DNA of 64,000 bases from Cyanidioschyzon merolae (taxonomy: Eukaryota). Location of the stretch: NCBI GenBank assembly GCA_000091205.1, contig AP006499.2. One strand, 5' to 3'. The position numbers were made by a program, and so were the translations under genes. Shown here one piece after another: positions 1 to 63,870 of this stretch (its first letter is position 1; each line of letters opens with the position of its first letter). The notes beneath the pieces were generated by a model, which saw nothing but the letters and a program-made list of their open reading frames with translations, was not told the origin of the DNA and made no database searches.

Positions 1-69
1 ACTTGACCACAGACGCCTCCTAGAATTTTTGGACCGGCCACCTACTACTGGTTCCAACTTATTCTTGCA

Positions 70-2176
70 TCATTCCACCTTGAATGGTTCTCCCACAAAA
101 TTCTCTCTTGTCATCTCTGGAAGTCTTTTTTCCATCACCACACATTTCCTGATATTGATTGCGGCGTTAAAGTCTCGGTTCACAAACTCCATCCGTTTCT
201 TGCCATCATTGATTGTACTTACTAATGCAAGTCGCCCATGAACGTTCGCCCTCCTTTCCATTTGCTGTCCCGTCAGCGGTCCGTATTTTTCATATCCTCA
301 GGGCTCCGCTGGCACTTTTTTCATCTCGAATCTCTGAAGTGTGCATCCCAGTTCATGGTGTATATACAATGCTCGGAACTCATCGATCGGTAGCGGAACG
401 AAACGCCTTGCGCACTCCTTGTACGTTCTCGCCGGTGGAGCTGGTGTAGTCCCTTTTTGGGTCTTCCAGCGTCCTGCTCCGTTTGCCACTACGAGCCTCT
501 GACGTTCATCCTCCTTCAAGCCACTCAACTGATTGAAAAAGTTGGCAAACGCCCGCTGCTTCCCACAATACAGGTTCATTCGCAGACGAGCCCACCGAGG
601 CTTTGTATACTCTTTCCACAGCGCATCCCAATGAGCAACGCGACCTTCCATGAATTTCCGAAAAGCTTCAAAGTCCGCTCCTCGACTCGTCACCTTGCTC
701 AAGGCCTCCAGGTGCTCTTTCAGTTATGCGTTCCACGTCTCGATTTTATTCCTTGCATTCATGATTCTGGAATCTCGATAGTTTCTTGCTCTCGAGAACT
801 TTAAAATACTCATGCCTTTCTGAAGTAAGTTGCCGTGGATTCCATCTTCCGCACGCTTGGGTACTGCGGTGGTTATGATACTTGTGCCCCAGGGTCCGCG
901 CCAACGACAAGGTCGTTATCCTGCACTTTCTGCGTCGCAGAATCCGCCTCCTTCTCATCTTCATGCTTCGTTACGGGCGAGGCCGAGCATGGAACAAGAC
1001 GATCCGCCTTCAGGCGCCGACGGTGTACACACATGGATACCCCATCGGTTTCGATCACCCCAGCGAATACCTTTTGTTCGCTGACTTTCAAACGTTTGAT
1101 TTCGAAGATATTTTTCTGGTACTTCTCCCGGTTGACACCGGTGACCTCCTTCCTGCTAACCTTGAACTCCGGACAGATCTCCCTCATGATGCCATGAAGG
1201 ACTGCGGAATCGATGGTCACGAAATGTGCCCTGATGTTGCACAACGGAACCACGTTGAAGCGCTTCTCCATTAGGAACGCTTCCGTCTCTCAGACGCTTC
1301 ATTGTTCCCGCGATTCAGCTCCATCTCCGCCTTGGGTTCGAGCTCTCGGTCTGGGTGCACGAAATAGCGCATAATTAGGGGATATCATCATTTTTTCACC
1401 TTTTTTCATATCTGATACCTTTTCTGCTGGGTTGACCGGCCTCAAGGGTGCACGGTGCTCATGAATAGTCGCACGGATTATAGAATCCTCATTCGTGCAC
1501 CTGCGTGATGTCTTCTTGTCGACGAACTCGATCTCCTGTTCAAGCTGCCGATCGTCCGTCATCCCATTGGTGATGGCCCATCTTTCCTTCGCGAGAGAGA
1601 CCCGGTTGGAGTGCAAACACGGCGCATATCATGAAGCCCTGGAGGTTCATGGTTAAACGGTCTCCAAGTTCGTTAGGTACCGCATGGCCCCGTGGGTGTA
1701 AATATTCCAGTCCCTCTGAATCGAGTACCGTAGAAGCTGTAGAAGGGATGCTTTTCGTGGAGGGCATGCACCCGCTCATTTCCCCTCGAGGTTTCCCCTG
1801 TGGCGAGCACCAGGTGGCGAAGAAGGGTCCTGCTGAAAAATTCTTCCGGAACCTCGGCTGTTTCGATGTCGGCCACGTCTTCATTCATCTCCTTCACCAA
1901 ATGCATTAGCCCTGACGAAGCCTTTATAACACTCATGGAGTAAGACGCAACACGGTTTCTGGGAGTCTCTTGCAACGCTTCCTTGGACGGATGCTTGATA
2001 TGTTTAAGATGGCAGGCTTTGACAACCATCACGTCGTTGTGCCGTCTTTCTTGCAGCCTTTGACGTCGGGCCTCCTTCATTTGCTTCTTTGTCTCGTCCT
2101 GTTCCTCTTCGCACTGGACTGTGTGTTCGTTTGTATCCGCCAGCTGACGACACTGGGCCTCCAGGAGCCTCCACTT
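70..2176 (-). pseudogene. Fanzor1-like RuvC nuclease (TnpB homologue) ORF remnant of copy LA, about 690 codons in 5 frame-shifted pieces
   Basis: The putative ATG at 2176-2174 follows a 5' leader intron. An N-terminal K/R/E-rich (NLS-like) stretch precedes the ASSGLMHLV block, the RuvC-I D in GADPG, LVVANGAGRW at the expected RuvC-II position (no Glu), HHELGCTLQRFE, and NRDFNAAINI (RuvC-III). Confidence 0.55.
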
Positions 2177-2209
2177 TCACTCGCATAACTTTCCTTTTTA
2201 ATTTTTTTT

Positions 2210-2274
2210 CTGAAAAAGAACGCACCTTGAATGCTTCAGGTATAAACAGCGAAAAATCACTTGAATACACTTAC
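2210..2274 (-). other. Putative 65-nt spliceosomal intron in the 5' leader of LA (GTAAGT...TTTTTCAG)
   Basis: Minus-strand reading is CTCAAG|GTAAGTGT ... GCGTTCTTTTTCAG|AAAAAAAATT. An intron of identical length with a GTGAGC...AG boundary sits at the homologous position of L+ (61441-61505). Confidence 0.5.
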
Positions 2275-3119
2275 TTGAGGGTTGGAATACGATTGAACTG
2301 AAAAGCATACTTTGCTACGACTTCAATGCAAATACACCGCGTGCAGCAGAACAACACGCTCTTGATACCGATCGCGTTTCCGTTCAAGAGCAGCATGCGC
2401 GAAGTGTCTCGTGTAACTGGCTGATGTCTCTGGTGCACGTGTCCAGCCCCCTACAGAAAAAAAACAGAGACTCACGACTAACTGGCAACGATATGACAAT
2501 TTCTTTCCCCCCTCTAAGGTAAACGTTAAAAGGCGAAAAGGTTTCCATATTGTCGAAAGTTTATTTTATAGGCGAAACGTCCCGCGAGCCGGACGTGTCT
2601 GCCAGACCAGTGCTTCATGCGACCCCAGTGGAAGGTGCTTGCTGGAAACCCGAGCAACTCGTGCGAAATGCAGTTTATTATGAGACTAGGAGCGGGTATG
2701 CTGCGTCAGGGCGTCGGCCTGGTCGCAGTTATCTCCTTACATATCGCTTGGCGCTGCCGCAGGCACTAGGTCTGTCTGCAGAGCTTGCAGGCTCCCAGAA
2801 AGATTATGTACTCTGGCTCTGTATCGGGAAAAGCGCTCCTCGATTCGATGCCCTCTGTGGTACGGTAACGCGGTTTTGTCTCCGCGATCCATCTGTTCCA
2901 GCGGTTTAGGCGCCACTACGGGTGCTCGTGGTAGGTACTCGCGCACGCTAGAACGTAAAAACCGACCAGTATGTCCGAGATGAAGTGTAAGAGATGGATC
3001 TTAGTCGGCCGGGGCGGGAAGGGCAGCATGATGAGCGCTTCCTCGAAAGCCACTACCCATCCATCCCGAAATCTGGGATCCATGGTAAATGTAAACGTTT
3101 GTCATCGAAAAAAAACAGA

Positions 3120-4483: not shown

Positions 4484-5755
4484 TCGTAGTCAAACCATGA
4501 GGGCTCACCAACGCATGGGTACTTTTAACAACATCAAGCGTTGTTTTGGGACGGCCTCTTCCACTCCTTGCCGCTGGATTTCGTTACCTCACCGCCACCA
4601 AGATGAGTCGTGACGCCCGCTACAAAGCGCTCCTAAAATAACCGATACCACTATGCAGCGCATTCATAAACCACTGCGCGCTTCTCCTTTTCTTACGAAC
4701 AGCACGCTCAAATACCCCATTCATCTGGCTCTCCGTCTAGCGGTTCCATGGCAGCTCGTGGGCGCACCAGATCGCGCCCCTATATCGCGACGACGAACAC
4801 CCGACGTCGGCCGTTCACGAGTGTTCTCAGACACTCATGCCGAAAGCCCAACGGGGTTCTCACGTCAAATACTCCTCTCCGCTCTCATCGCACGCCCCCC
4901 TCTCTTCGCGCCCGTCGACGAGCCGGCACTCAACAGCGACACCGTATGTCTCTCCAGCTGCAGGCTCGCTACGGCTCCCGCGTCTCCCGTTTCCATGGGA
5001 AAGGGGCCTTGGACGCGGGCGCGCGCCGTCGCAGCGGCCGCCTCCAGCAGAGTTTGCGTCACCGCTCTGCACAGCGGGAGCGTAGACGGATCGAACCAGC
5101 TGGGCTGGATATCTCCAGCGCGGATCTCCCTCTTGGTGCCCCGCCTCATCGTGGTCAGCATTGCGTTGCACGGATTCTCCCGCGGACTGGACAGCGTGCG
5201 CGTGCGCATGCGCCCGCCCAGAATACGCGCCGTGCGGATCGCCCCGAGCGAGCCCGGGGTCTGTCGGTACCGCACGAGACGCCGAGACGGAACGAGGGCG
5301 TCGAGGCGACCCTTCTGCATCCGCCAACGACATGTATCGGGCGACGAGGGAGGCCCTCGGTGGATGAGCTTTGTCGGACATGTTGTCACACCTTACCACA
5401 GCCGATCATGGCAGCTACGTTGTGCGTCTCGAGGCTGTACACAGCGAAGATGGCAATGGCAAGCAAAGCATATATCGTGACGACCGCCTCTGGATGAACT
5501 GTTTCAAGAACACCTGGTGGCAGCGAAATCGGGACTTGAACACTGCCATCAGCATCCTTCAACAGTCGACAACGGACTCCGAGGGAGCGGAGCGTCCAGC
5601 ACGCTGACTGGCGGACATAAGAAAGGAAAACGGAGCATTTGCAGAAAGAGTCTGCGAGGGCTGGTGTGCATGACAGTACGATGAAATCCAAACCTGTGCG
5701 AGTACGCCCGTGTCAGGATGCCTGTTCCATTTCATCCCGACATGCGTGAACGTAC
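4484..5755. repeat. Direct repeat R1 (1272 bp), about 99% identical to R2 at 10861-12156
   Basis: Near-identical ORF artefacts (4653-5497 vs 11030-11895) confirm the identity. R2 has a 21-bp insertion (about 11738-11758) and a 3-bp indel at the right end. R begins immediately after the S1 3' end. Confidence 0.85.
5386..5755 (-). repeat. C/H-rich coding-like module of repeat family E (copy a), embedded at the right end of R1
   Basis: Minus-strand translation HVGMKWNRHPDTGVLAQVWISSYCHAHQ...DGSVQVPISLPPGVLETVHPEAVVTIYALLAIAIFAVYSLETHNVAAMIGCGKV is homologous at aa level to 40480-40902 (+), 15170-15613 (+), 11784-12156 (-) and 60990-61165 (-). Confidence 0.6.
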
Positions 5756-10860: not shown

Positions 10861-12156
10861 TCGTAGTCAAACCATGTGGGCTCACCAACGCATGGGTACT
10901 TTTAACAACATCAAGCGTTGTTTTGGGACGGCCTCTTCCACTCCTTGCCGCTGGATTTCGTTACCTCACCGCCACCAAGATGAGTCGTGACGCCCGCTAC
11001 AAAGCGCTCCTAAAATAACCGATACCACTATGCAGCGCATTCATAAACCACTGCGCGCTTCTCCTTTTCTTACGAACAGCACGCTCAAATACCCCATTCA
11101 TCTGGCTCTCCGTCTAGCGGTTCCATGGCAGCTCGTGGGCGCACCAGATCGCGCCCCTATATCGCGACGACGAACACCCGACGTCGGCCGTTCACGAGTG
11201 TTCTCAGACACTCATGCCGAAAGCCCAACGGGGTTCTCACGTCAAATACTCCTCTCCGCTCTCATCGCACGCCCCCCTCTCTTCGCGCCCGTCGACGAGC
11301 CGGCACTCAACAGCGACACCGTATGTCTCTCCAGCTGCAGGCTCGCTACGGCTCCCGCGTCTCCCGTTTCCATGGGAAAGGGGCCTTGGACGCGGGCGCG
11401 CGCCGTCGCAGCGGCCGCCTCCAGCAGAGTTTGCGTCACCGCTCTGCACAGCGGGAGCGTAGACGGATCGAACCAGCTGGGCTGGATATCTCCAGCGCGG
11501 ATCTCCCTCTTGGTGCCCCGCCTCATCGTGGTCAGCATTGCGTTGCACGGATTCTCCCGCGGACTGGACAGCGTGCGCGTGCGCATGCGCCCGCCCAGAA
11601 TACGCGCCGTGCGGATCGCCCCGAGCGAGCCCGGGGTCTGTCGGTACCGCACGAGACGCCGAGACGGAACGAGGGCGTCGAGGCGACCCTTCTGCATCCG
11701 CCAACGACATGTATCGGGCGACGAGGGAGGCCCTCACGCGCCATGGAGCGGCCCTCGGTGGAGGAGCTTTGTCGGACATGTTGTCACACCTTACCACAGC
11801 CGATCATGGCAGCTACGTTGTGCGTCTCGAGGCTGTACACAGCGAAGATGGCAATGGCAAGCAAAGCATATATCGTGACGACCGCCTCTGGATGAAATGT
11901 TTCAAGAACACCTGGTGGCAGCGAAATCGGGACTTGAACACTGCCATCAGCATCCTTCAACAGTCGACAACGGACTCCGAGGGAGCGGAGCGTCCAGCAC
12001 GCTGACTGGCGGACATAAGAAAGGAAAACGGAGCATTTGCAGAAAGAGTCTGCGAGGGCTGGTGTGCATGACAGTACGATGAAATCCAAACCTGTGCGAG
12101 TACGCCCGTGTCAGGATGCCTGTTCCATTTCATCCCGACATGCGTGTTGAACGCAG
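10861..12156. repeat. Direct repeat R2 (1296 bp), partner of R1
   Basis: See R1. The E-family module lies at 11784-12156 (-). Confidence 0.85.
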
Positions 12157-23054: not shown

Positions 23055-24505
23055 CTGCACGCTTTCTGGAGCGAAAAGTTTCGCGACCATAGAATGTACA
23101 CAAATAAACCTACTCACAGAAGACACCCAGCCTTTTTTGACGGACTGCATGCTATCGGCTTCAGCAACCCCTTGCACAGTTTGAGCCTTAGCGGTTGCGC
23201 GACAAAGTTCGCTCGCGTCACCTCCTCGTGTCTTGTCTTCAGCACTGCACATCTTTTGGTATTGATGGCGACGTTACCGTCTCGGTTCACGAAATCCTTG
23301 CGTTTATTGCCTCTGCTTGAACTCAGCATTGCAGGGATTGCTAGAGGTCCTGCCTTCTATGAAATCAAAGTCTCGTTATCGTCTCGTTGAGCAAACACAT
23401 TTTCTCGCCTTTTTCCGTTCTTCTTCTTTATCACTCGCTCTTCTTCGGTTGGTGGTCGGCGTGAAGAGGATCTTTTTTTTCGTTCCTTTTTTGTGGAACC
23501 CGGCGACACCGGGCCTCCAGGATCCTTGACGTCCGTGACCATACCTATTCCTCGGATTTTTTTTATTTGAAAATGAACGCACTTCTTTATGCCCTTAGAT
23601 GAGGGCCTTCCTGGAGCGAGCAGGATTTGCGGAACAAAAACTACTTGTGCCCCGGTGTGTCACCGTGCAGAACGCTCCAGGGACTCGCCCAGTGGAGCGA
23701 TCATTATGTTAAAGGATACAAAACACTCCTTCGATGAGGTTGAAACACGTAGAGCACGGAGGAATGAAAAGCAGCGCTATCTGGATAGAATCTGCAAAAA
23801 CTCGAACGCATCGGAAATGGTGCAATGCCACGTTTTCCAGTAGAGGGAAGTCGGCGGACGTCAGGGAAAAGTCTTCAATGATTCGAATTTGCGGGTGCTG
23901 TTGTATGAGTCTCCTGTACGAGCGAAACTGAGGCCGTCAAATGGATCAACTGCAGCTAGAATAGACGATGATGTCCTCGTTCTCCTCGAGATCGATCGCA
24001 CATACAACGAGCCCCCTCTTTTTGAATACCCATATACGCTTCGGCCGTTTCGTCCAAAGCAAGTCTCATTTACCGGCGAAACAAACCGCCATTCCCGTGC
24101 TTCATACCGATCGCGACGTTTCAGGGATGCTGTCGTAGCGATTTCGATGGACGATGGTCGTGCATGAGCTAGGACTCTTTTTTTGCGACTGTATCCCAGT
24201 GTTTTCAGTACCACATGAACAAGTTTTTGAGAAACAGATACACTCTTGGCGGCTACTATCGTCGCTTTTGCCTCCCGCAGGGTGATCAACGGGTCGTATT
24301 TCCACCATGGACCGCAAAGAGTCTTTAAGAATATGGCTCTTGGCGCGGAGCGCGTATCCTGTGATCTTTCAGTGATCCTCAACTATCTGAGAACTGCCGT
24401 ATGACTGACCTAAAAGAAAAATACGGTCCCCCGTGCACAATGAAGTAAGGAATATATATCCTCCAGGCAGTTTGCCTTCGAATTATACGGTACGATGTAA
24501 CTTGA
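23055..24505 (-). mobile_element. Short TnpB/Fanzor2-like element copy S2 (degraded), with a K/R/E-rich insertion module
   Basis: The 5' region (minus) matches S4. The interior has ILAAVDPFDGLSF (RuvC-I-like). The C-terminus is KRKDFVNRDGNVAINTKRCAVLKTRHEEVTRANFVAQPLRLKLCKGLLKPIACSPSKKAGCLL, and the conserved 3' core CTGAAGCCGATAGCATGCAGTCCGTCAAAAAAGGCTGGGTGTCTTCTG is the reverse complement of 23117-23166. An extra module (23376-23582, MRSFSNKKNPRNRYGHGRQGSW...RASDKEEERKK) is shared with S5. Confidence 0.6.
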
Positions 24506-24935
24506 TATCGATCTGCCGCTCGTACTGCGAAAAAGCATTCGATGACACGCATCAGCGGTGGAACAGAATTGACCTGAAAGTCCGCAGAAATCGAACAATC
24601 TTTCAAGGTTTTGTCCATGATTCTAAAATGTGATATATTGGTCCATAACGCATTGCACGCCAAGCGATCGCGAGCGCCGCTCCCCATGTAACGAGCACCG
24701 ACGCGCGTCTGACGCCGAGCCCGGGCCAAAACTCGAACCGGTGCTGCGCAGCGACGGCCGCGACACGATGTGGCGAATGCCGGCGTATTCGTCGACACTT
24801 TGTAGACGCTCTAGCGCAGGCTTTACGTAACGAACTTTTTCTGATCGAAAACCAAAACTCAGTTTGATCGTACCTTGTGCACGCGTGGACAGTAAAAACT
24901 TGTATTGGGACCGATAATTGTCATAGGACGCGACC

Positions 24936-27211: not shown

Positions 27212-28570
27212 GAAACCTGGGCAGGCAGTGAACCTAGCAAGCCGGCTTCAAAGGTTTGTTGCACGTCGAAGCGCTCATGAAGAAACCGTTTATCGCCCAA
27301 CACCGTCTGCGCAAGCTGGAACCAAATGAAGCGTTCTAGGATGTTTTCAGGATGTCGTACTGCTAAACTGTCAGCGTTGCGTCCGCAATGCAGCGGTTTG
27401 TGCTGCGCTCTATGATCGATGAAACCTGTGCGAGACAAATATGCTTCCGAGCGACCATCAACGGTGCAGGTCATAGAGCCAATCCATACCTGACAGGTCG
27501 AGAAGAGCATCGATCGATCCTCTGGCAATGCTCCATAGCGAAGACATGTGAGCTAGACTGCGTGATGCGCGACACCCCGAGGATCCATTCGCCCCCGGTC
27601 TTGGAGCGCCCACATGTGAGGTCGAAGATAAAATCACGAGCGCCCAGGTTCTCTTCAGGTATCTCCGCTTTCTTCCGTTGTGTCTATCTCCGGGAGGGAG
27701 CTCCCGTAAACCCAGAAACAACGCGGTAATGAAGAATCCATCGCACAGGACTCGAATTGCTGCTCGAGTGTTGCAACATTCGAGGCACTCAACATCGGGG
27801 TCGTGCATCTGCTTGACATCGCGACGTTCGTGGTTGCGTGCCTTTGCCTATTCGGAAGCTCTAGCGCACGCATGTACGGTGTGCGTCAAGCCGTCACTCC
27901 CTCATACATGGGAAAGCCCTGCTCTCTCTGTGCTGCATCCGCAACTTCGCTATAGGCGCTGTTGCGGACGCTCACGATAGAGTCGGTGTGTGATGGAACG
28001 TACGAAATGACTTGTATCTCCGGGGGGAATAGCGAGTGCTGGAACTTGTAGGTGGGTAGAATTACGGGCGCTTTCCCGATCGCCACTATCAAGCTCAATC
28101 GGAGATTCCTGGTCGCTAGAAAAGTTCTCTCAACAAGCAACGTACAGCGTTCTGGTTCGATGTATGCGCAGCGCCGTGTTCACGTCAGGTTCTGGCGCAG
28201 AAGCGTCGTATGGCTGTTTCCACCGCCGTGGCGGATGCCTTGCTCCAAGCACCAGGTATACGGTCACATTATTGGTACTGACAGGGAAGATGCCTCTCTA
28301 GCGCCGATTCCAACTACGAGATGCTACGTACTGAACGACCTGTGCTGGCGTTTCAGCATACCCAGAGCGACGCCGCATCGGATGCTGCGGAACGTTCTTC
28401 AGTGACATCCTGCACGTGGGTGAAACTGGACGCCCTCTCGGGGACGCGCACTGCGCGCCATCTGCGACACACACCGCGTCCGTTCTGGGTCCGTAGCTGT
28501 GGTCAGTGGGGTTTGCTTGACGACCTGGCGCTTAAAGAGAGCGCAGCATAAATCCGGGTCTGTCTGCTGA

Positions 28571-29230
<660 letters not shown>

Positions 29231-30232
29231 CCTGTAAGGCGATCTTGGCGGTGCAGCACTGAAGGGTTTCAAGGCCCTCGGTTAAATGTCTCAAAGTTCC
29301 GCGTACTAGGCGCGGCGCACGGAAGGCGCGCAGTCGTGTTCGTACCCTAGACTGGTACAGGCTGTGAGAATCTCTTCTCTATCATGCATCCGTCGCAGTA
29401 CGTTCTTTAAGGAAATGCATTTCTATCAAAGGACCTCGGTGGTCCTGGTAAACGAGTAGGGCGATGGTTCCGGAAAAGGCTGAAGGGCGACGGTGCTGTG
29501 CCAGCGCCGACCGCCTTCTTCGTACTAGCGCCCGCTTCTGGCTCTGTAACGCTTGCCTTAGCACTAGCAGTCGCTGACGTCGTGCTCGCTGCACCATTTC
29601 CAGTGGATGCTCTGTCATGTGTTTGCACGCTCTGTGCGGAAGCCGTTTTTGGTGGTTTCTCCGCCGCACTTGACGAGGACCCCGCAGTGCTACCGGCATC
29701 CGTTGGTACCCGAGGCACTACTCCAGTCGTTTGTTTCCTCTCAAATGCTGGCAGCTGGCCGTTGCGAATACGACTGCGAGCTGAATCAGCTCCGGGCATT
29801 GGAAGGCGCTTCTTGCCAAGTTTGCCGCCTCGAGTCAATATCCAGCCGTCGCCGCCCCAGACTCGGTCTGCGCGAAGCACCAGCAACGGGCGGCTGTTCT
29901 GCGCAGAGATCGAGCTCCGCCAGCTAGTCTCGTGAAGTGCATGCGCGCAAAACCCGATGACACCTATTGAACCGAGTGTTCCAAAGGACTGCAACGCACT
30001 CAACGCAAAAGCTTGGCACTGCATGGAGAGGCTCAGACACCCTGAAGGAATTGATGAATAAAGATCAAGCGCAGCTAACTGTGGAGCCGTAGCGGCGGTC
30101 GGCGCTCTGCGGCACACGCGGCAGTGGGTAGTTTAAGAAAAACAACAAAGCGGACATTCTCTTGCGGTGTCCGTGTATAGGGTCTTTCATCTCAATTTCG
30201 TTCCGCCTCTGCTACGTTCTGTAGAAGAAGGT

Positions 30233-31620
30233 CGAAATTATTGTGTAATTAACCTTTTAGATCGTAGACGAATTGTCAGTAGGGTACGTATTCTTTACTA
30301 AACAGTCCACGGAGAACTGCATTCCTTCTTCATGTCAGACATTCCACATCACGCAGATGGTTGCGGAACACTGGAAGACAGGCATAGACGCGCTCTGCGT
30401 CAAGAACCGATATTCTCCACGTGTGCTTCCAATCAACGGTAGAACACGATCCTTTGATCACCTTTTCCGGAAGTACAAAGCGACGATAATAGATGCCACC
30501 AGCGCCTCTGTTTCTAAACAGCTTGTTCATGTGGTCCAGAATACACTAGGATACTGTCGCAAGAATGTCCTAGTTCAATCACCGTCATCTCCCATGGAAA
30601 TCCCAGTTACAGTGCTCCTTGAACATCGAGATCGGTATGAAGCACAGGGACGTGGGTTTTTTTCCTCAGTCAATGAGACTTGCTTCCGATGAAACAGTCG
30701 GAGAAGATACGGATATTTGCGGAGCGGGGCGCCCGTTCCATATACCATCGAATTCGAGACGAACGACGAAATCATCATCCGTTCTAGTTGTAGTGGATTC
30801 TATTTACGGCCTCAGTTTCGATCGTGGGGAAGGCTCATACAACAGCACCAACCATTTTGTCGAATCATTGACGATTTTTCTCTAACATCTGGCGACGTCC
30901 TTCTACTGAACAACGTGGCATTTCACCAGCCCCCTCGCGGTCGAGCGTTTCCCGATTCTATCGGGATAGAGCTCGTTTTCATTCTTCCGTACGCTCCGTG
31001 ATTCAACCGGAACGAAGCAATCTTTTGTATCCTGAAATGCAACGATTGCTCCACAGCGAGATTCGCTGAAGCGTCCAGCACATGGTAAAACTGGGCCACA
31101 TTATGTACCATTTGCGCAAGTGCTTTTTCTTCCGGGAAGGGCCCCACCAAAGGCCATAAAGAAGTGCACTCACTCTAAAAGAATTAAGGGATGAGCTGGG
31201 ATGCACACTTCAGATGCTCGAGATTGAGAAAAGACTGCAGAGCGCTTTGGCGACAGAAATGTACGAAGACATGATAGAGCACCAAATGGCACAGAGGGCC
31301 TAAGTGCGCAGATTCCTCGCATAGGTGAGTACAAGCGGAAGCAAGAAAGGCATGAAGTTCGTGACCCGAGATTATAACGCTGCTATCAATATCAGGAGAT
31401 TTGCGGTGCTGGCGACGAAATCCCGGAAGCTGACGCGAGCTTCCTTTAGAGGGTCAGCATCTCAGGCTCGAAGTATGCTGGGATAAATACTGAAACCGAT
31501 AGCAGGCAACCGGTTGAAAAAGCCTGGGAGGCGTCTTCTGGTGGATATGCATATACCCCCACATGGCGGTGCGAAATTTTTTATTTCACTGAGGGTATGT
31601 ATTTTGATGGACTTAAATAG
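30233..31620 (+). mobile_element. Short TnpB/Fanzor2-like element copy S3 (degraded), with an intact RuvC-III motif
   Basis: The 5' end CGAAATTATTGTGTAATTAACCTTTTAGATCGTAGACGAATTGTC matches S1. The interior has VLVVVDSIYGLSF. The C-terminus is LRDELGCTLQMLEIEKRLQS...KKGMKFVTRDYNAAINIRRFAVLATKSRKLTRASFRG. The 3' core at 31491-31552 is CTGAAACCGATAGCAGGCAACCGGTTGAAAAAGCCTGGGAGGCGTCTTCTGG. Confidence 0.65.
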
Positions 31621-37723: not shown

Positions 37724-38427
37724 CTATTGTGGCGAGTTGGCTTTTGCCCAGGTTGCGACCAAGGCAAGCTCACGACTATATTTCCACAGCAGTGCTGGCT
37801 TTCCTCGAGCGAGAGCAACCTGCGCGCAGCAGTCTCAGATCCGACTCCGCTTCCCCGGGGCGCGTAGCTTCTAGAGTGGTGAAAACATTATTAACACAAT
37901 CCGTGACCTGTATTGAAATTGTGCAAGCTAACCAGATTCAAGTAACGGGTAATAAATATAAAAATAAATCTTATCGTCGTCATTCAGGACGTCCAGGAGG
38001 GATGAAGATTCGTTATTTTTATCAAATAGGTGGAAAAAGAGCATTGGAACATGCAATTAAAGGTATGCTTCCAAAAGGTGTGAAAGGTCGCCAATTGTGG
38101 CGAAAAATTCGTATAGAAGCTTAGAAAGAGTTATGTATGCCATAGGAAAACGTAAATGTGCCATCCCCGGGGAAGCAACCAGCCTGTATCGTGTACCAAG
38201 CTGCAATCCATATTTGTGCATATTAATTCTAAACATTCCACGATTGAACTGGATCCAGTGCAGCCTCGAATCGCGATGCCACCCTGGCGGCTAACCTGCT
38301 GCGCGTACCTGGCAGCTAAAAATGATTCTTGTTCCTCTAGTTGCTTTCAACTTAATTCAGTTCCAACCCCGCTGTATAAAATCGAATGATTTTTCTCAGT
38401 GTAGAGCACGAGATCGAGGTCACTATG

Positions 38428-39788
38428 TAATTTATTGTGTACATCTTAGATGAATAGCCTGTAGGATATATTCTTTAGTAAACAATCCCTGCAGGACTGT
38501 ATTTATCCTTCAGGTCAGTCATACAACAGTACTCAGACGGCTCAGGAACACTGAAAGAAAGGAGTATATGCGCTCCGCGCCAAGTACCGATATTCTCAAA
38601 GCATGGTTGCGGTGAATTGTAGGAATTGGACCCGTTGATCGTTTTTTACGGAAAGCAAAAGCGAAGATAATAGCGAACACGGGCGTCACTTTTCTCACGA
38701 GCTTGTTCGGGTGGCGCTGAAAACAGAGGTATACTGCCGGAGAAAAGAGCCCAGTCTCATGCACGGCAATCTCCCGCTGAAATCGCCTCAGCAGAACTCC
38801 TGGAACGTTGCGATCTGTAAGAAGTAGAGGAACTCCGGATCGTTTTCTCTGTCAATCAGACTTTATTAGGAAAATACGGTCGGTGCGTGTATGGGTATTC
38901 GCAGAGCAGGCAGCCGGTTGTATGTAAGATGAAACTCACAGAGAACGAGGATATTATCATCTATTCTAGCTGCGGTGGATTTACTTGGCGGCCTCGGTTT
39001 CGCTCGTAGAAGAGAATCATGCAACAGCACCTGCTACGTCGAACCATTGAAGACTTTCCCCTGACGTCTCACGACGGCCTTCTATTGGACACCGTAGCAT
39101 TGCAACATTCCCCTTGCGTTCGAGCTCTTGCCGATCCTGTCTGGGGTAGAGCTGCTTTTCAATCCTTCATACACTCCCTGGAAAAATCCAATCGAAGGAA
39201 TGTTTTCTATTGTGAAACGTACTGATCGCTCTACTGGACGAATCGCTGAAGATCTCAGCACATGGTTACACCGAGGCACATGTCGCATGTCGTCCGCAAG
39301 TCCTCCTCGCTCCAGGAAGGTCCTCACCTCAGGGCCTAAAGATTTGCATTCATTTTCAAAAACCAAAAATCTCAGGGATGAGCTGGGGTGCACGCTTCAC
39401 AAGGTCGAGATGGAAAGAAGGCAACGGATCGCCTCGGCGATGGAAATGGACAGAGACATCACAGAGCTGCAAGTGGCATTGAGGGCGCGCATTCGAGGAC
39501 TCCTTGCACCGATGAGTATCACGAGTGAGAAGAAATGCATGGAGTTCGCGAACCGAGATTTCAGCGCCATCGTCAATATCAGATGATGTGCGGTGCTGAA
39601 GACAAGACCCGAGGAGCTGACGTGATCCACTTTTTGGGGCAGTATATCAGGCTCTAAGTGTACAGGGATAGAAACTGAACCTGACAGCAGGATATCGGTT
39701 GAAAAAGGCTGGGGCATCCGCGAATGGGCGAATATATACCATCCATAGGCGTGAAATGTGTATCCTTTTTCCTGCAGTATGTATTCAT
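38428..39788 (+). mobile_element. Short TnpB/Fanzor2-like element copy S4 (degraded)
   Basis: The 5' region is shared with S2. The C-terminus is LRDELGCTLHKVEMERRQRIASAMEMDRDITELQVALRARIRGLLAPMSITSEKKCMEFANRDFSAIVNIR*. The 3' core at 39675-39725 is GAAACTGAACCTGACAGCAGGATATCGGTTGAAAAAGGCTGGGGCATCCG, followed by GCGAATATATACCATCC. Confidence 0.6.
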
Positions 39789-42439: not shown

Positions 42440-44800
42440 CACACCAGCGACACGTGCCAGTTGGGAATCGAGTGCGATCACTCCTGGCGGCTGAGATTCT
42501 TCTCGACGGTCGTCTTCACCGTTTCAGCGCAACGCCGACACTGAGTAATGAGCGATTTCCTCGAAATTTCGCTTGAGACAGAGCTGCTGAAAGCTCAGGA
42601 AGCACGAGAAGTTTCCGGACGTTGGTCGAGATCTTCAAGTCACGATGCAGAAACCGCTTGCCGGAATGCGTAAAGTTGGAATCACAGCCAAGAAAGCATC
42701 TCATCTTCATCCATGATGGCATCTGACGGTGAACCGGCGTACCGAATAATATCTCGTACACCCAGTTCAGTTTCAATGTATTTTTTTCGACCTGTTCCCG
42801 CAGGCGCCCATGCACATGTTGCCTGGATGCCGTAAAAAACTGATCGATGAGACTCACATAGAATCGATTCTAGCACTTGTCATGCGCTCTCGTTGAAGGC
42901 GTGGGAGTGAAGCCTTTTAACGGTCCAGCACGTTCATAATAATCGGATACCATCAAACGACACGATTTCTCGGTCATATTCTTTCCCAAGTCATTGAAGA
43001 AGTTGGCAAATGCGCGCTGCCCTGCCCTGTACAATTAAAACCGTTGGCGGCTCGAGCACGTTTCCATATGCGCCCAACAGGAATCGTACGCATGAGCCAC
43101 TTGGACGCATTCGCATTCTCTGACTGGAGAAAGCAAAGCATTGTCCCTGCTCGACAAATTGCCAAGGGCGTTGAGACTGGTCCTGAAGCTGCCATTCCGC
43201 CCATTGGTATTCCTAATAGCGCGCATCATTCTCGAGCCCAGATGGTATCGACCTCTGGGAAATTGCTTTTCTTGATCTACTTTCTGTTCATGTATTTAAC
43301 TTGGCCCTCTTTATTTAGAGGTACCCTGGCAGCCATGGCGGTCTTAAATCGGCGATCTATGCCCCTGAAATGATCGTTCTATTCATCTTCTCTAAAGATT
43401 AAAAACGAGTCATGTTGCTCGACTCAGTCCTAGGTTTCACGAGTTTCTTGATGTCCTCCCAGCTAAATTCTCTGCCGGTCTCCGTGGTCCATGTAAAAGC
43501 TTTCCGTTTCACCCCTGTAGACGAGAAACCTTGCACGAGCTCCGCCGATGCTCTTCCCGATATTGTTGGAATGCGTCGTGGTTTCTCGCAGAGGGCAACT
43601 CTATCTTCACCTTTCTCGCTCCATGGCTGGCCAGCATGAACGTTGTTGCTCAGCTTCACATCCGTTTTCCCCGCAGAATCCAGACGCACCGTCCAGACGC
43701 ACTGCTCCGAGCGTGTTACCGAAACTTGCCCTCTCTATTCATGTATCCTCTATTTCTTAACTAAATTTTCGCTTTCTGCTCCGTCGCGAGCATGCCCATG
43801 AACCGAAGCGCGCCTTTTCGCTTCCTCTCTCGCATGAGTTGAGGAGCAACGCAGCAGTCGTGGTGTTTTGAAAGCAGAGAACGATTTTGCGAAGACCGCT
43901 ATCACGGATGCGAATGACTCTTCTGTATCATAGATCATATAAATTGCGTTTGACGGTAGAGTAGACACCTTTGACTGGACTGGGCCAGGGAGAGTAAATA
44001 CGCACGAAGAGAAGCTCAAATCTTGTCCCAGCAGTGTCCCGCTAACCGTTTTGAGTAATATGAAGCAGTGTAATCTAGGAACAGGAAACAGGTATGTGGG
44101 AAGGAGCCGCCCCGAGTTATGCCTCGAGAAATGATGAGCTATTTAATGATTCATTCAGTTTGACCATTCGATTCATACACCGCCGAGGCTGATAATGGCG
44201 GATTACTCGCTTTTCTAGTCTTCAGAAATAGTTATTTGCCTCTTGCTGAGTGCCCGTGTAGAGTTCTCGCATTTCTCTCGAATGCAGTCTCATCTAGTGA
44301 TTCGAAAACCCATCTCCAATCTAATGAGCGCTCCTATTTTAGTACCAATTCTACACCATGCTGCTCAGCGCGCGATGGTTTCCAGTAGAAGCGCGCGTTT
44401 TGCTTTATACATCCACGTCTCTTCGCCACCGTCCGTTCCAACGATGCGAGAAGCTCATTTCCTGTCGATTTTTCAATGTTATTTCTTAGGGAACGTATGG
44501 AGTGGCGTGAATCGGCTACGGGGCAGCCTTGCACATAGTGATCGGATGGTTCTGTTTCGTCGACGCGACCTCCGGGATAAAAGCTAAGATATGGATGGTC
44601 CATCCCCTTGTTGATCCATTGAACGACTAACCTCGTCGAGTAAGTTTTTATTTCTCGCCAGCTAATATTGACAGTATAAAGCCTTTCCATAACCTTTCCC
44701 TAATCTACAGGATACAATACTTTCGTTAAATACCCGCTAGAAGAGCAAACATAACCAGTAAGGTTGCGGTGATCCAGATAGTCCAGAATTCACTGCACTG
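42440..44800 (-). mobile_element. Long TnpB/Fanzor1-like element copy L3 (diverged, degraded)
   Basis: Minus-strand segments align to LA/L+: 44334-44690 (YSTRLVVQWINKGMDHPYL, about the ASSGLMHLV block), 43750-44019 (...DGAESENLVKK, about GDGAESREQ), 43399-43689 (VKRKAFTWTTETGREFSWEDIKKLVKP, about VRKIEFTGETSETYWKNIFDIKHLK), 43035-43229 and 42880-43040 (VQVAHAYDSCWAHMETCSSRQRF*...QRAFANFFNDLGK, about VRVAHWDALWEEYTKPRW...QRAFANFFNQL), and 42516-42857 (RFYVSLIDQFF...GKRFLHRDLKISTNVRK, about RDFNAAINIRK). The 3' core at 42472-42530 resembles the family block. Confidence 0.55.
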
Positions 44801-51471: not shown

Positions 51472-52000
51472 TTGTATCGCCAGTAAAATGGACAACATTT
51501 CATGATCATAGAGGGAAAATATATACCTTCTCACAGACGCTTCCCAGCCTTTTTCAATCAGTTGCCTGCTATCGGTTTCAGTGTTTATCCCCGCACGCGT
51601 CGAGCCTACGAGGCTATCCCAAGAAGTTGGATCGCTCCAGCTCCTTGGGTCTCGTCTTCAGTGCGACACACCTTCTGATATTAATGGCGGCGCTGACGTC
51701 TCGGTGCAAGAACTCCACGCGTGCATTGACGCTGGTTAAACTCGCCACTGCAAGGATTGCTGGAAATCGTGCCCTCTGTGTAACTACAGTCTCGTCATCG
51801 TCCCGTCTCGTAAACACCTTTCCTCGCCTGTCTCCTCTTTTTTCTTCTTCGTCACTTGCTCTGCTTCGCTCAATATTCGGCGAGAAGAGAATTTTTTCCG
51901 TTTCCTTCAGGCAGCCAACGATGACGGCCTTCCAGGATCCGGGACTTCCATGCCCATGCTTTGTCCTTGGATTTTTTATTTCTTCAAATGAACGCACTTG
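51472..52000 (-). mobile_element. 5'-truncated short TnpB/Fanzor2-like element copy S5, closest to S3, with an intact RuvC-III motif
   Basis: Minus ORF 51614-51997: MRSFEEIKNPRTKHGHGSPGSW...RASDEEEKRGDRRGK (the module shared with S2), then ...PAILAVASLTSVNARVEFLHRDVSAAINIRRCVALKTRPKELERSNFLG. The 3' core (reverse complement of 51523-51578) is CTGAAACCGATAGCAGGCAACTGATTGAAAAAGGCTGGGAAGCGTCTGTGAG. The tail GAAATGTTGTCCATTTTACTGG matches the S1 tail. Confidence 0.6.
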
Positions 52001-52208
52001 GGGTCCATCTGCGATAAACCGCGAAAAAGCATTTGCTTACACGCACCTGGGGTCGGAATATCATTGAGGTCAAAGACTAGAAGCAGAATCCTCTGGGTAC
52101 TTACGCGGGGCGTCGTCCCTCTGGCGAACTTGCGCTCGGAGAGGCGCGCGGATTGTTTATGCAGATTCTCGCGTTTCAACGCATATCAAAAAGGTTTCCG
52201 CAGGCCTC

Positions 52209-61165: not shown

Positions 61166-61440
61166 AGAATTCTGCGTTGCTACAGGCGCATATGAGAGAG
61201 ACAAGGGAAGTAGTCAAACATCATGCCCGCCAAGACTGGTATTGACGAAAGTGAGAAGCGACCCAAAGCCTAGTCTTTTCTCCCGAGTTAGAGGGTCGGT
61301 CCTCGTTTGTTCAGAAATGAGTGTAGATCTGCCTCCACGTTGGGGGCCTATTAATGAAATGATTCATAATCCGCGTCCTCCTGCTGGCAAACCTGCTCTT
61401 TCTACTTATGGTCTATCACCTCAATTTAGTTCCAATCTCA

Positions 61441-61505
61441 GGTGAGCGTCATCGAATGCTTTTTCGCAGTTTTCAGCAGGAGCATTGGAGTGCATTCATT
61501 TTGAA
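61441..61505 (+). other. Putative 65-nt spliceosomal intron in the L+ 5' leader (CTCAG|GTGAGCG...TTTTGAAG|)
   Basis: Same length and position as the LA intron (GTAAGT...CAG). A leader of about 25 nt precedes the ATG at 61531, as in LA. The upstream ORF 61242-61445 cannot be spliced in frame, so exon 1 is non-coding. Confidence 0.5.
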
Positions 61506-61530
61506 GAAATGAATAATCCAAGGTGAAGCT

Positions 61531-63678
61531 ATGGATATGCAGGACAGAGATCCTGTTCACCAAGTGTCGCCGGCTGCCAGAGAAAAGCAAAAAGCAGTGT
61601 CTAGTCCAGAGGAAAAGGAGAGGACAAGAAAGAAACGGCAGGTGGCCCGAAGTCAATGGCCGCAAGAAAGACGAATGTACGACGATACGGTGGTGATAGC
61701 CTGTCTTTTCGGACATATCACGGATACGTACGAGGAAAAATTGCGAGACGCCATCAGAAACCGTGTCGATTCGTACTCCATGAGTACTAGAAAGGCGTCG
61801 TCAGGGCTAATGCATTTGGTGATGAAGATGAACGAAAACGTGACGCACATGGAAACAGTCGCGGTTCCGGACGAGTTTTTCGACAAGACCTTTATTCGTA
61901 ACCTAATGCTTGGCACAGGCGAAACACGGAGAGAAAATAGCGGGTTCACGCCCTCCACGAAAATTATGCCGAACTCCGCTTCGAGGGTACTCGAAACAGG
62001 GGTGACCAGGATATTTACGCATGCGGAGCGATGAAGTATCTCACGAACCTGAAGAACCATTTGACGATGAACCTCGAACGTTCCATGATACGCGCCGTGG
62101 TTGCACTCTACTCGGGCCTGTCTCGCAAAGGACTGCGGGCGATTATCAATGGCATCACGAAGGATCGCAAGCATGAAGATGAGATCGAATTCGTCGACAA
62201 GAAGACGTCACGCAGGAGCACAAATGAAGCGTCTGTAATCCAAGGGGTTATAAAAGAGCGCCGTACAGTGTTGGGGCTGGCGAATCCAGTAGAAGAGGTA
62301 TCAGATATGAAAAAAATGAAGAGAGACACTATCGCCTCGTCCTGCGATATTTCGTGTTTTTGGACCAAGAGGTCGAACGCAAGAAGGAGATGAAGCTGAG
62401 TGAGCAAAAAATGAAGATTGGGAGAGACGGAAGGCTGCCCTGACGGGGAAGCGCTTCAACGTCGATCCGATATGTAACGTCAAGTCATACTTTGTGGGTA
62501 TCGATTCAAGAGTCCTCCATGGAATCATGAAGGAGATCAGTCCGGAGTTCAATGTAAGGAAGATAGAGTTCACTGGTGAAACAAGTGAGACGTACTGGAA
62601 AAACATCTTCGATATCAAACATCTCAAAACGAGCAAGCAAAAGGTATTTACTGGGATGATTGAAACCGATGGAGTAGCCTCGTGTGTGCACTATCGGCGG
62701 TTGAAGAAAGATCGGCCAGTCCCTTCGTCGGCTGCGCCCGTTACGAAGGATGAAGAAAACAATGAGGAGGATCCTGCGATGCAGGAGGTGCAGGATAACG
62801 ACCTTGTCTTTGACATGACGAAGGATGAAGAAAAGAAGAAGGCGGATCCTGCGATGCAGAAAACGCAGGATAACGACTTTGCCGTCGGCGTGGACCCTGC
62901 GAATACGAATGTCATAAGTATCGCAGTACCTAAGCGTGCGGAAAACGGTACTGACGGTAATTTACGTCAGAAAGACATGCGTCTGTTGAGATTCTCGAGA
63001 GCGAGATTCTATTGGGAATCGGGAATAATGAATGCGAGGAAGAAAATCGACACTTAGAATGCAGGAATGAATAATCACCTGGAAGCTTTGAGCGAGGTGA
63101 CTAGCCGAGGAGCGTACTATGAAGCCTTTCGGAAATTCATGGAAGTTCGTGTTGCCCACTGGGATGCGCTGTGGGAAGAGTATACTAAGCCCCGGTGGGC
63201 TCTTTTGCGAATGAATCTATACGGTGAGAGGCAGCGGGCGTTCGCGAATCTTTTCAATCAGTTGAGCGCCCTCAAAGAGGATCAAAGTCAGAGGCTGGTA
63301 GTGGCATACGGAGCACGGCGATGGAAGACCAAAAAAGGGTATACGCCAGCTCCAACGACAAGAACGTACAAGGATTCCGCAAGGCGTTTCGTCACGATAC
63401 CTCTAGATGAGTTTCGAACATTGCATACACACCATGAACTGGGGTGTACATTTCAGAGAGTGGAGATAGAAAAGTGCCAGAGGAGCCCTGAGGATATAAA
63501 AAAGTATGGACCGCTGACGGAAGAGCAAATGGAAAGGATTTCGAAAGTTCGTGGACTACTTGCATTAGTAAGTAAAACCAGTGATGGTAAGAAACGTATG
63601 GAGTATGTGAACCGAGATTTTAATGCCGCTATCAATATTAGGGAATGTGCGGTGCTGGAGAATAGGCCTCCAAAGTAG
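61531..63678 (+). pseudogene. Fanzor1-like RuvC nuclease (TnpB homologue), about 690 codons in 4 segments (61531-62034, 62031-62393, 62494-63057, 63067-63678)
   Basis: N-terminal K/R/E-rich region, then the ASSGLMHLV block. RuvC-I is DNDFAVGVDPANTNVISIAV. LVVAYGARRW lies at the expected RuvC-II position. The Cys/His cluster is HTHHELGCTFQRVEIEKCQ, and RuvC-III is GKKRMEYVNRDFNAAINIRE. A +2 frameshift at 62031, a stop or frameshift near 62391-62403 and an in-frame TAG at 63679 (PPK*TRENFIGQPLKVE...) disrupt the ORF. Confidence 0.65.
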
Positions 63679-63836
63679 ACAAGAGAGAACTTTATTGGAC
63701 AACCTCTCAAAGTGGAACTATATGAGAGAAAGTTGGAAGCAGTGGTGGATGCCCGGTCCGAAAAGACGGGGAGGCGTCTGCACGTCAGCTGGAGAGGATT
63801 TGTCTAAGGCGCGCTGATCGCCACTACTGTCCACCG
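63679..63836 (+). ncRNA. Candidate omega-RNA (guide RNA scaffold) region of L+, conserved with the 3' blocks of all seven other copies
   Basis: AAGTTGGAAGCAGTGGTGGATGCCCGGTCCGAAAAGACGGGGAGGCGTCTGCACGTCAGCTGG (63731-63792) aligns with the reverse complement of 1-62 (LA) and with the S-family core CGGTTGAAAAAGGCTGGGAGGCGTCTTCTGG. The conservation persists where the overlapping ORF tails differ in stop position and frame. Confidence 0.4.
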
Positions 63837-63870
63837 CCGGCGAGCACGCGCTCGTGCGCGTGCTCGCCGG
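63837..63870 (+). other. Perfect 15-bp inverted repeat (hairpin) CCGGCGAGCACGCGC-TCGT-GCGCGTGCTCGCCGG at the 3' end of the L+ conserved block
   Basis: Read directly from the sequence. Its position suggests a 3' structural element of the candidate RNA, a terminator, or a subterminal transposon hairpin. Confidence 0.75.

Follow-up and report, generated by a model that had tools for sequence, protein, structure and literature searches.

Two long, related copies of a repeat lie in a 64,000-nucleotide stretch of the Cyanidioschyzon merolae genome (contig AP006499.2 of assembly GCA_000091205.1), the whole of which is referred to here as the window. We call them L+ (plus strand) and LA (minus strand). 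We conclude with high confidence that both are decayed copies of CMe-1A, an element encoding the Fanzor1 protein CMe-1, whose RuvC active site consists of an Asp, an alternative Glu and a second Asp (D-altE-D) and which has lost the Cys4 zinc finger. We infer in addition that the intact protein would be an active RNA-guided nuclease, able to fold without metal. The element family and the relocation of the glutamate are already known, while the loss of the zinc finger is less well described.

Identity and state of the two copies

CMe-1A was reported by Bao and Jurka (2013; Mobile DNA 4:12, PMC3627910) as a 3169-bp element that encodes CMe-1, a Fanzor1 protein of 734 residues from the red alga C. 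merolae; its copies, about 150 in number, each share about 80% identity with the consensus. It is a dispersed repeat in a eukaryotic genome. The DNA consensus was taken from supplementary file 2 of the same paper and compared with the window using blastn. LA is nearly full length, being cut by the edge of the window, and matches nucleotides 1–3083 of the consensus with 82.9% identity. L+ is truncated at the 5′ end and matches nucleotides 786–3145, with 82.6–87.1% identity. This divergence agrees with the published figure. Over the C-terminal 420–430 residues, L+ is 82% identical to the CMe-1 consensus protein (427 residues) and LA 77%. The published protein carries QRLVVAYGAGRW, VDEFRTSYTHHELGCTLQRVEMEKCQ, RGLLALVS, NRDFNAAINIRRC and RGLLALVSTTSDGKKRMEFVNRDFNAAINIRRC; the protein motifs of the family are identical to those of the 734-residue consensus, and the window copies belong to the same family. 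Apart from its truncation, L+ differs from the published element in having one extra unit of an acidic repeat. The features are located in Table 1.

Alignment to the consensus open reading frame (ORF) places net frameshifts of L+ near 61926, 62316 and 62404. A Trp codon (63055–63057) and a Leu codon (63676–63678) have become in-frame TAG stops, and a 75-bp repeat is inserted in frame at 62790. The heavily decayed LA contains 12 frameshifting indels and 4 stops. Both copies are pseudogenes, that is, non-functional relics, and neither qualifies as a candidate nuclease. Pairwise ratios of nonsynonymous to synonymous substitution (dN/dS) among L+, LA and an intact-looking metagenomic gene are 0.32–0.33, and the ratio over the RuvC part, between L+ and the metagenomic gene, is 0.23. 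Much of the divergence of the family has therefore occurred under purifying selection.

The interval 62880–63640 of L+ lies in a single plus-strand reading frame, and from RuvC-I to RuvC-III there is one frame with no frameshift, the TAG at 63055–63057 being the only stop; the TAG at 63676–63678 falls just downstream. Correction of frameshifts therefore cannot yield a glutamate in this region. An earlier note, made from the letters of the sequence, had stated that the canonical RuvC-II position has no acidic residue in either copy. This is borne out by the translations of L+ (QRLVVAYGARRW) and LA (QRLVVANGAGRW), and no glutamate occurs at this position in any reconstruction or in the consensus.

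Since both copies contain frameshifts and stops, and L+ has copy-specific changes within its motifs (DPG to DPA, TS to TL, and Tyr to His), the missing Glu and Cys residues might be thought to be artefacts of decay. The probability of this is negligible. The published consensus shows the same state, as do more than 70 independent homologues and relatives no more than 50% identical, and the RuvC half of L+ is free of frameshifts. A protein search gave 183 homologues, all of them metagenomic and 55–80% identical. The dominant strings among the 120 listed are VGADPGNTN, QRLVVAYGAGRW, (V/I)DEFRTSYTHHELGCTLQR and MEFVNRDFNAAINIR. The absence of the Glu and Cys residues is therefore a family trait rather than decay, given that the metagenomic homologues and the published consensus share it. 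Decay is seen elsewhere: the family consensus for RuvC-I is GADPGNTN, with DPG retained in LA and altered to DPA in L+ alone, and the [TS][TS] site after the glutamate (consensus DEFRTS) has become TL in L+ and AL in LA, which is decay in both cases. Between PIDEFRA and VNRDFNAAINI, LA reads YIHHELGCTLQRFEMKKVP.

Three further observations concern the ends of the element. The 5′ part of LA, about 785 bp (2322–3107, minus strand), is the part of CMe-1A related to a separate repeat, TE-N2_CMe; the first 635 bp of CMe-1A are 95% identical to that repeat (Bao & Jurka, 2013; PMC3627910). A solo fragment of the same part, which L+ lacks, is found at 27908–28132 (minus strand; consensus nucleotides 4–232, 70% identity). 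At the 3′ edge of the consensus match in L+ there is a 34-nucleotide near-perfect palindrome (CCGGCGAGCACGCGCT..CGTGCGCGTGCTCGCCGG-like, 63837–63870).

Table 1. Location of the CMe-1A copies, their protein motifs and related elements in the window.
Feature	Position	Strand	Basis or remark
L+ copy of CMe-1A, 5′-truncated (without consensus nt 1–785)	61407..63842	+	blastn of consensus
L+ Fanzor1 (CMe-1) pseudogene	61531..63807	+	alignment to consensus ORF, translations
Acidic tandem repeat, about 25 residues per unit, 2 units (..TKDEEKKKADPAMQKTQDNDF..)	62743..62881	+	self-match of 62743–62806 with 62818–62881
L+ RuvC-I, GVDPANTN	62887..62910	+	catalytic Asp codon 62893–62895
L+ canonical RuvC-II position, QRLVVAYGARRW	63289..63324	+	Gly 63310–63312 in place of TnpB Glu
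L+ PLDEFRT, with putative relocated catalytic Glu	63400..63420	+	Glu codon 63409–63411, aligned to SpuFz1 E541
L+ HTHHELGCTFQRVEIEKCQ, only two Cys	63424..63480	+	translation
L+ NUC/TNB-domain remnant without C4 zinc finger	63424..63606	+	profile alignment to SpuFz1 and PpFz1
L+ RGLLALVS, no Cys, where second zinc knuckle is expected	63550..63573	+	translation
L+ RuvC-III, VNRDFNAAINI	63607..63639	+	catalytic Asp 63616–63618, aligned to SpuFz1 NRD (D606)
LA copy of CMe-1A, nearly full-length, cut by window edge	10..3107	−	blastn of consensus
LA RuvC-I, GADPG	888–902	−	translation
LA canonical RuvC-II position, QRLVVANGAGRW, no acidic residue	466–501	−	translation
LA PIDEFRA	370–390	−	translation; Glu codon 379–381
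LA RuvC-III, VNRDFNAAINI	151–183	−	translation
Short chimeric element	3116–4459	+	shares pieces with CMe-1A
Short chimeric element	30229–31536	+	shares pieces with CMe-1A
Short chimeric element	38344–39759	+	shares pieces with CMe-1A
Short chimeric element	23104–24583	−	shares pieces with CMe-1A
Short chimeric element, further deleted	51521–52088	−	shares pieces with CMe-1A
Decayed divergent Fanzor1-like copy	42600–43265, probably to about 44300	−	tblastn

Fold and catalytic site of CMe-1

A hidden Markov model (HMM) scan of 1.84 billion cluster representatives identified 1508 relatives (E ≤ 1e-3), and many of these are full-length proteins of 600–700 residues. Two alignments were used: a narrow family alignment, A1 (12 sequences, about 75% identity), and a broader one, A4, made up of 40 of the relatives together with the homologue P0004 (41 sequences). 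When compared with solved structures, the A4 profile matches Fanzor1 of Parasitella parasitica (PpFz1, E 3.4e-20), that of Spizellomyces punctatus (SpuFz1, E 3.8e-11) and Guillardia theta GtFz1 (E 6e-6), and no family other than Fanzor1 comes below E = 1. The only trace found with Pfam is Cas12f1-like_TNB (E 0.23), over the NRDFNAAINI motif.

AlphaFold gave no usable model from the shallow A1 alignment, with a predicted local distance difference test score (pLDDT) of 30.8. When relatives at 50% identity or less were added, pLDDT rose to 80.6 with a predicted template modelling score (pTM) of 0.78, and disorder was confined to residues 374–470. The predicted fold is clearly that of RuvC and Fanzor1 and is not in doubt; the possibility raised in the earlier note that a model might lack a RuvC fold has not materialized. 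The disordered stretch (pLDDT below 50) is equivalent to the acidic repeat, which in L+ sits just N-terminal of the RuvC-I strand, and is thus upstream of the motifs and not between them. LA has its equivalent near 905–980 (minus strand). The published consensus has a single unit of the repeat and L+ has two, and the metagenomic homologue P0002 has as many as about five; across A1 the range is 1–5.

Bao and Jurka (2013; PMC3627910) describe the Fanzor motif as D-X(125,275)-[TS][TS]-X-X-[C4]-X(5,50)-RD, and in the CMe-1 consensus the spacing from the Asp to TS is 175 residues. Of the features that characterize Fanzor1, CMe-1 shows the profile similarity, the fold, the family DPG, the Gly with a downstream Glu, and [TS][TS] with RD; the Cys4 zinc finger is the feature that it lacks. 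A canonical TnpB of the IS200/IS605 or IS607 type was considered and is ruled out by the Gly at RuvC-II, the DPG motif, the lack of any OrfB/TnpB zinc-ribbon match above threshold, and the lack of a TnpA-like ORF adjoining the copies.

The location of the third acidic residue follows from the HMM alignment to SpuFz1, for which residue numbers were corrected for the 394-residue offset due to the MBP (maltose-binding protein) part of the chain. The family sequence vvgiDPGr aligns with VVVIDPNK of SpuFz1, such that the Asp corresponds to chain residue 777, or D383. At the canonical RuvC-II position vaYGsA aligns with VVMGDW, Gly with Gly. Further on, vlvdEFRt aligns with FLLDEYKT, placing the Glu at chain residue 935, which is E541, and FvnRDlNAA aligns with YWNRDMLST, which contains D606. 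In SpuFz1 as solved by cryo-electron microscopy, Mg2+ is coordinated by D383, N385, E541 and D606 (PMC10432273). As the DEFRT glutamate is aligned with a Mg-binding residue, it is the candidate for the catalytic Glu of CMe-1. The alignment thus supports as catalytic the Glu of DEFRT, which is encoded at 63409–63411 in L+ and 379–381 in LA and is E603 in the consensus; its codon can now be stated exactly.

The model has a topology consistent with this assignment. A strand (617–623) ends in the canonical-position Gly, and is followed by a helix and a second strand (650–654), with the Glu two residues beyond the latter. This arrangement would be expected for a carboxylate moved from the end of β4 to the end of the neighbouring β5.

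Conservation was counted in about 115 representatives with mutual identity of 50% or less, from the top of the list of 1508 relatives (P0121–P0268). The RuvC-I Asp is kept in 115/118 and the Gly of DPG in 117/118. At the canonical RuvC-II position 110/114 have Gly, and 115/117 retain the alternative Glu. In RuvC-III the Arg is present in 107/107 and the Asp in 105/106.

The Gly in place of the RuvC-II Glu is not a surprise, given that it is a published hallmark of all Fanzors, and it is ordinary for CMe-1. Jiang et al. (2023; PMC10530073) describe replacement of the RuvC-II Glu by Pro or Gly in all Fanzors, with a conserved alternative Glu at a distance of about 45 residues, and report that the mutation E467A abolishes cleavage by ApmFz2. 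Yoon et al. (2023) define Fanzors by DPG together with a Glu that is shifted C-terminally and precedes the zinc finger by six residues, and the shifted Glu is regarded as a defining feature of all Fanzors (PMC10530073; PMC10711439). In the earlier data set, G500 and E536 were already called 'extremely conserved' in Fanzor1 (Bao & Jurka, 2013; PMC3627910), and a 2026 preprint deals with engineering of the Fanzor D-altE-D site. The earlier note's proposal of a rearranged RuvC site with a relocated Glu, as in a subset of TnpB and Fanzor proteins, is thus upheld by the alignment to E541, the conservation and the strand topology, except that the relocation is a trait of all Fanzors and not of a subset. 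The absent canonical Glu is the textbook Fanzor rearrangement and the element is a catalogued C. merolae repeat, and both carry little weight for the question that the note posed.

Two of the distances proposed at the outset need revision. The canonical RuvC-II position was put about 85 residues before the RuvC-III Asp; in L+ the Gly lies 102 residues upstream of that Asp (109 if counted from the Gln). An insertion of about 150 residues was suggested between RuvC-I and RuvC-II relative to bacterial TnpB, and the actual excess is about 50: there are 139 residues between the RuvC-I Asp and the canonical-position Gly in CMe-1, compared to 87 between D191 and E278 in ISDra2 TnpB. The relocated Glu is 33 residues beyond the Gly and 172 beyond the RuvC-I Asp.

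Two alternative readings of the site have to be considered. The first is that the protein is a catalytically dead or exapted derivative of TnpB or Fanzor, which has lost the RuvC-II Glu and only binds nucleic acid. No copy has an acidic residue at the canonical position, the zinc finger is gone, and inactivated TnpB branches are known in prokaryotes (PMC10691335). Those branches typically lose several residues of the triad, whereas here Asp, alternative Glu and Asp are each kept in 97–99% of the representatives, with neighbouring positions varying freely, and the combination of Gly and downstream Glu is catalytically active in ApmFz2 and SpuFz1. This reading is therefore very unlikely, and the related idea in the earlier note of a catalytically altered family is not sustained, even though L+ and LA are themselves dead. 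The second alternative is that the third acidic residue is a different glutamate, such as one in VEIEK or the Glu of HHELGC, which is invariant within the narrow family (E665 in P0004 numbering). The HHELGC position is Glu in only 47 of about 115 broader relatives, with Lys, Gly, Asp and Arg also common, in contrast to the near-invariant DEFRT Glu aligned to the experimentally defined E541. We consider this to be highly improbable.

On the preferred assignment, intact CMe-1 would be a eukaryotic TnpB-type nuclease, presumably guided by ω-RNA and having a single D-altE-D RuvC site. The Asp of the DPG motif would lie on strand β1, a Gly would replace the TnpB Glu at the end of β4, the catalytic Glu would be found 33 residues on, in DEFRTS, just past the next strand, and the last Asp would be that of NRD, where the final helix starts. 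The protein would bind RNA from the 3′ end of the element and cut DNA using D431, E603 and D672 (consensus numbering), and its zinc-free NUC domain would presumably be held together without metal.

Several results weigh against this overall interpretation. The narrow A1 profile gives only noise against the Protein Data Bank (PDB), and a Pfam search with L+ and four intact homologues finds no family above threshold, meaning that the link to Fanzor1 depends on the broader alignment. The glutamate was assigned by profile alignment, conservation and strand topology. A functional protein cannot be made from L+ or LA themselves, because of their frameshifts and stops, and a literature search found no published nuclease activity for CMe-1 or for any member of the zinc-finger-less clade. 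As regards ω-RNA, an Rfam scan of the whole window was empty, and RNAalifold applied to the 3′ parts common to the long and short copies gave −13.7 kcal/mol (covariation term +0.35), an unconvincing result. A tRNA scan of the whole window likewise gave no match.

Loss of the zinc finger

The positions of the four zinc ligands were set by profile alignment to CPRC...CTNPNC of SpuFz1 and CPKC...CKNMSC of PpFz1. In L+ they are occupied by His (63430–63432), Leu (63439–63441) and Leu (63565–63567), with no aligned Cys at the fourth. The earlier note had described a His/Cys cluster containing only two Cys. This is correct for L+ (HTHHELGCTFQRVEIEKCQ), but part of the cluster is specific to this copy, where the Tyr of the consensus SYTHHELGC has become His. 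The family also has a two-helix insert in the NUC domain (SPEDIKKYGPLTEEQMERISK).

At position 1, 52 of the representatives have His, 9 have Cys and 55 have another residue. At position 2 there is Asp, Thr or Leu, with Cys in a single case. Position 3 is Cys in 79/108, within an RGLLWC motif, and is Leu in CMe-1. No conserved Cys ever occurs at position 4. Sequences have a median of 1 Cys between the alternative Glu and the last Asp. Only 2/105 relatives at 50% identity or less contain any CxxC and none (0/105) contains two. Judged by these alignments, the Cys4 finger is absent from CMe-1 and from the whole of the surrounding Fanzor1 clade, and the degeneracy of the zinc finger noted earlier is indeed both family-wide and clade-wide.

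The combinations of residues at the four ligand positions are too variable to suggest a replacement metal site, and a clade-wide substitute of the type H/D/C/C was rejected on this ground. There remains the narrower proposal that the His/Cys cluster has been re-wired into a functional metal site, made up for example of His610, Cys615, Cys625 and Cys682 (consensus numbering). All 12 sequences of the A1 alignment have H663 and C668 (P0004 numbering), and the Cys that follows RuvC-III is clade-wide. Against this, the candidate ligands at positions 1 and 2 are not conserved in the clade, and the four-position combinations vary widely. The equivalent of C668 is mostly Ser or Thr in the clade, that of C678 lies in the insert and is Tyr or Val in some family copies, and the confidence of the model in this domain is only 58–89. 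We therefore regard a re-wired site as unlikely, and prefer loss of the Cys4 finger.

Two cysteines should be mentioned separately. The clade Cys of RGLLWC (equivalent to 63565–63567 in L+) has been lost in CMe-1. A second clade-wide Cys, just after RuvC-III (NIRRC, 63646–63648 in L+), is present in 90 of about 104 sequences and is kept in CMe-1. These two residues may belong to the structural core, form a disulfide or make up part of a metal site.

The C4 zinc finger was called strictly conserved in Fanzor and TnpB by Bao and Jurka (2013; PMC3627910), although both CMe-1 and the Volvox elements VCa-1/2, which lack it, were in their data set. Elsewhere the literature attributes a zinc finger to 'many' TnpBs and Fanzors, and among prokaryotic TnpBs some branches, RIIIr-4 for example, are documented as having lost it (Altae-Tran et al., 2023; PMC10691335). 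Given that the statement is 'many' rather than all, and that finger-less TnpB branches exist, we treat the finger as a variable and not as an excluding feature. In an incomplete search of the literature we found no explicit description of a zinc-finger-less Fanzor1, and nothing on Fanzor and Cyanidioschyzon beyond Bao and Jurka (2013).

The clade is met mostly in environmental eukaryotes. At E ≤ 1e-3 it contains about 1500 clusters (50% identity), the loss being seen at the top of the list. We suggest tentatively that a large Fanzor1 clade including CMe-1 lost its Cys4 finger long ago while retaining a near-invariant D-altE-D site under purifying selection, which we regard as quite possible rather than probable. 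The point that is left is a modest one, namely that the whole Fanzor1 clade around CMe-1 has no finger and has a conserved catalytic triad. If members of the clade are active RNA-guided nucleases, then the zinc finger would be dispensable for Fanzor1 function, which bears on the need for the NUC-domain zinc finger in loading of the target strand. If this is true, screens based on regular expressions or Pfam that demand CxxC...CxxC will have missed the clade systematically; the expression DPGx(120,160)ExxxxxxCxxC...CxxC (PMC10711439) would miss proteins of the CMe-1 clade.

Other elements in the window and comparison with known systems

Host genes in the window code for Sin3, a CLC channel, class-II DAHP synthase, Spo11, a DUF760 protein and phytoene synthase. 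Their ORFs are long and uninterrupted, which fits an intron-poor alga. An oomycete origin, considered in view of Mariner-borne Fanzor1 and a similar GC content, was rejected, as this set of genes and the match to the CMe-1A consensus both indicate C. merolae.

Searching the window by tblastn with the L+ protein gave five short fragments, limited to the C-terminal part, together with a single divergent copy that is 31% identical. The five fragments belong to short elements of about 1.35–1.45 kb, that at 51521–52088 being further deleted. They share with CMe-1A consensus nucleotides 788–969 or thereabouts, around the start of the ORF, and nucleotides 2737–3082, which encode the last 115 or so Fanzor codons. 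Their middle part, about 1 kb, is a decayed DDE transposase resembling Tc1/mariner/IS630, with the motif ..PPYSP.LNPIE.. and a match to Pfam DDE_3 (E 9e-4) that is below the cutoff. From their sequences, the short elements look like chimeric relatives that retain only the 3′ end of the Fanzor, where ω-RNA would be encoded.

The divergent copy is heavily decayed and is 31% identical to L+ over 227 residues (tblastn E 1e-19). It reads ..LIDQFFTAS.. and ..RCFLGCDSN..HRDLKISTNV, and keeps two Cys near the position of the second knuckle. It seems to be a second, older Fanzor1-like family; for C. merolae a single Fanzor1 family is recorded by Bao and Jurka (2013; PMC3627910). A 217-bp direct repeat with 99.5% identity (4484–4700 and 10861–11077) is found downstream of the first short element, and its copies overlap the starts of the ORFs at 4653–5480 and 11030–11878. 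It may be a recent segmental duplication of the start of a gene.

Compared with known Fanzors, CMe-1 has normal spacings. The Gly and Glu are separated by 36 residues in both SpuFz1 and the Fanzor1 of Bao and Jurka, and by 33 in CMe-1. The distance from Asp to Glu is 158 residues in SpuFz1 (D383–E541) and 172 in CMe-1, which is normal for Fanzor1 and matches the extended RuvC helices reported in SpuFz1 (PMC10432273). Identity to the solved Fanzor1 structures (SpuFz1, 8GKH and 9CEU–9CEZ; PpFz1, 9CF0; GtFz1, 9CER) is only 13–15%. All of these keep the Cys4 ligands (CxxC...CxxxxC), where CMe-1 has His, Leu, Leu and none, and they also lack the two-helix insert in the NUC domain and the disordered acidic repeat ahead of RuvC-I.

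The difference from ISDra2 TnpB (8H1J) and canonical IS200/IS605 TnpB is larger. These have the Glu at the end of β4, a D-hydrophobic-G motif, a C4 finger and an associated TnpA, and CMe-1 has none of the four. The TnpB branches RIIr-3, RIIr-5 and RIIIr-4 (PMC10691335) provide precedents, both for relocation of the Glu and for a whole clade losing the C4 finger with catalytic residues kept. These branches are prokaryotic or viral, and the finger-less one is rearranged at RuvC-III, unlike CMe-1.

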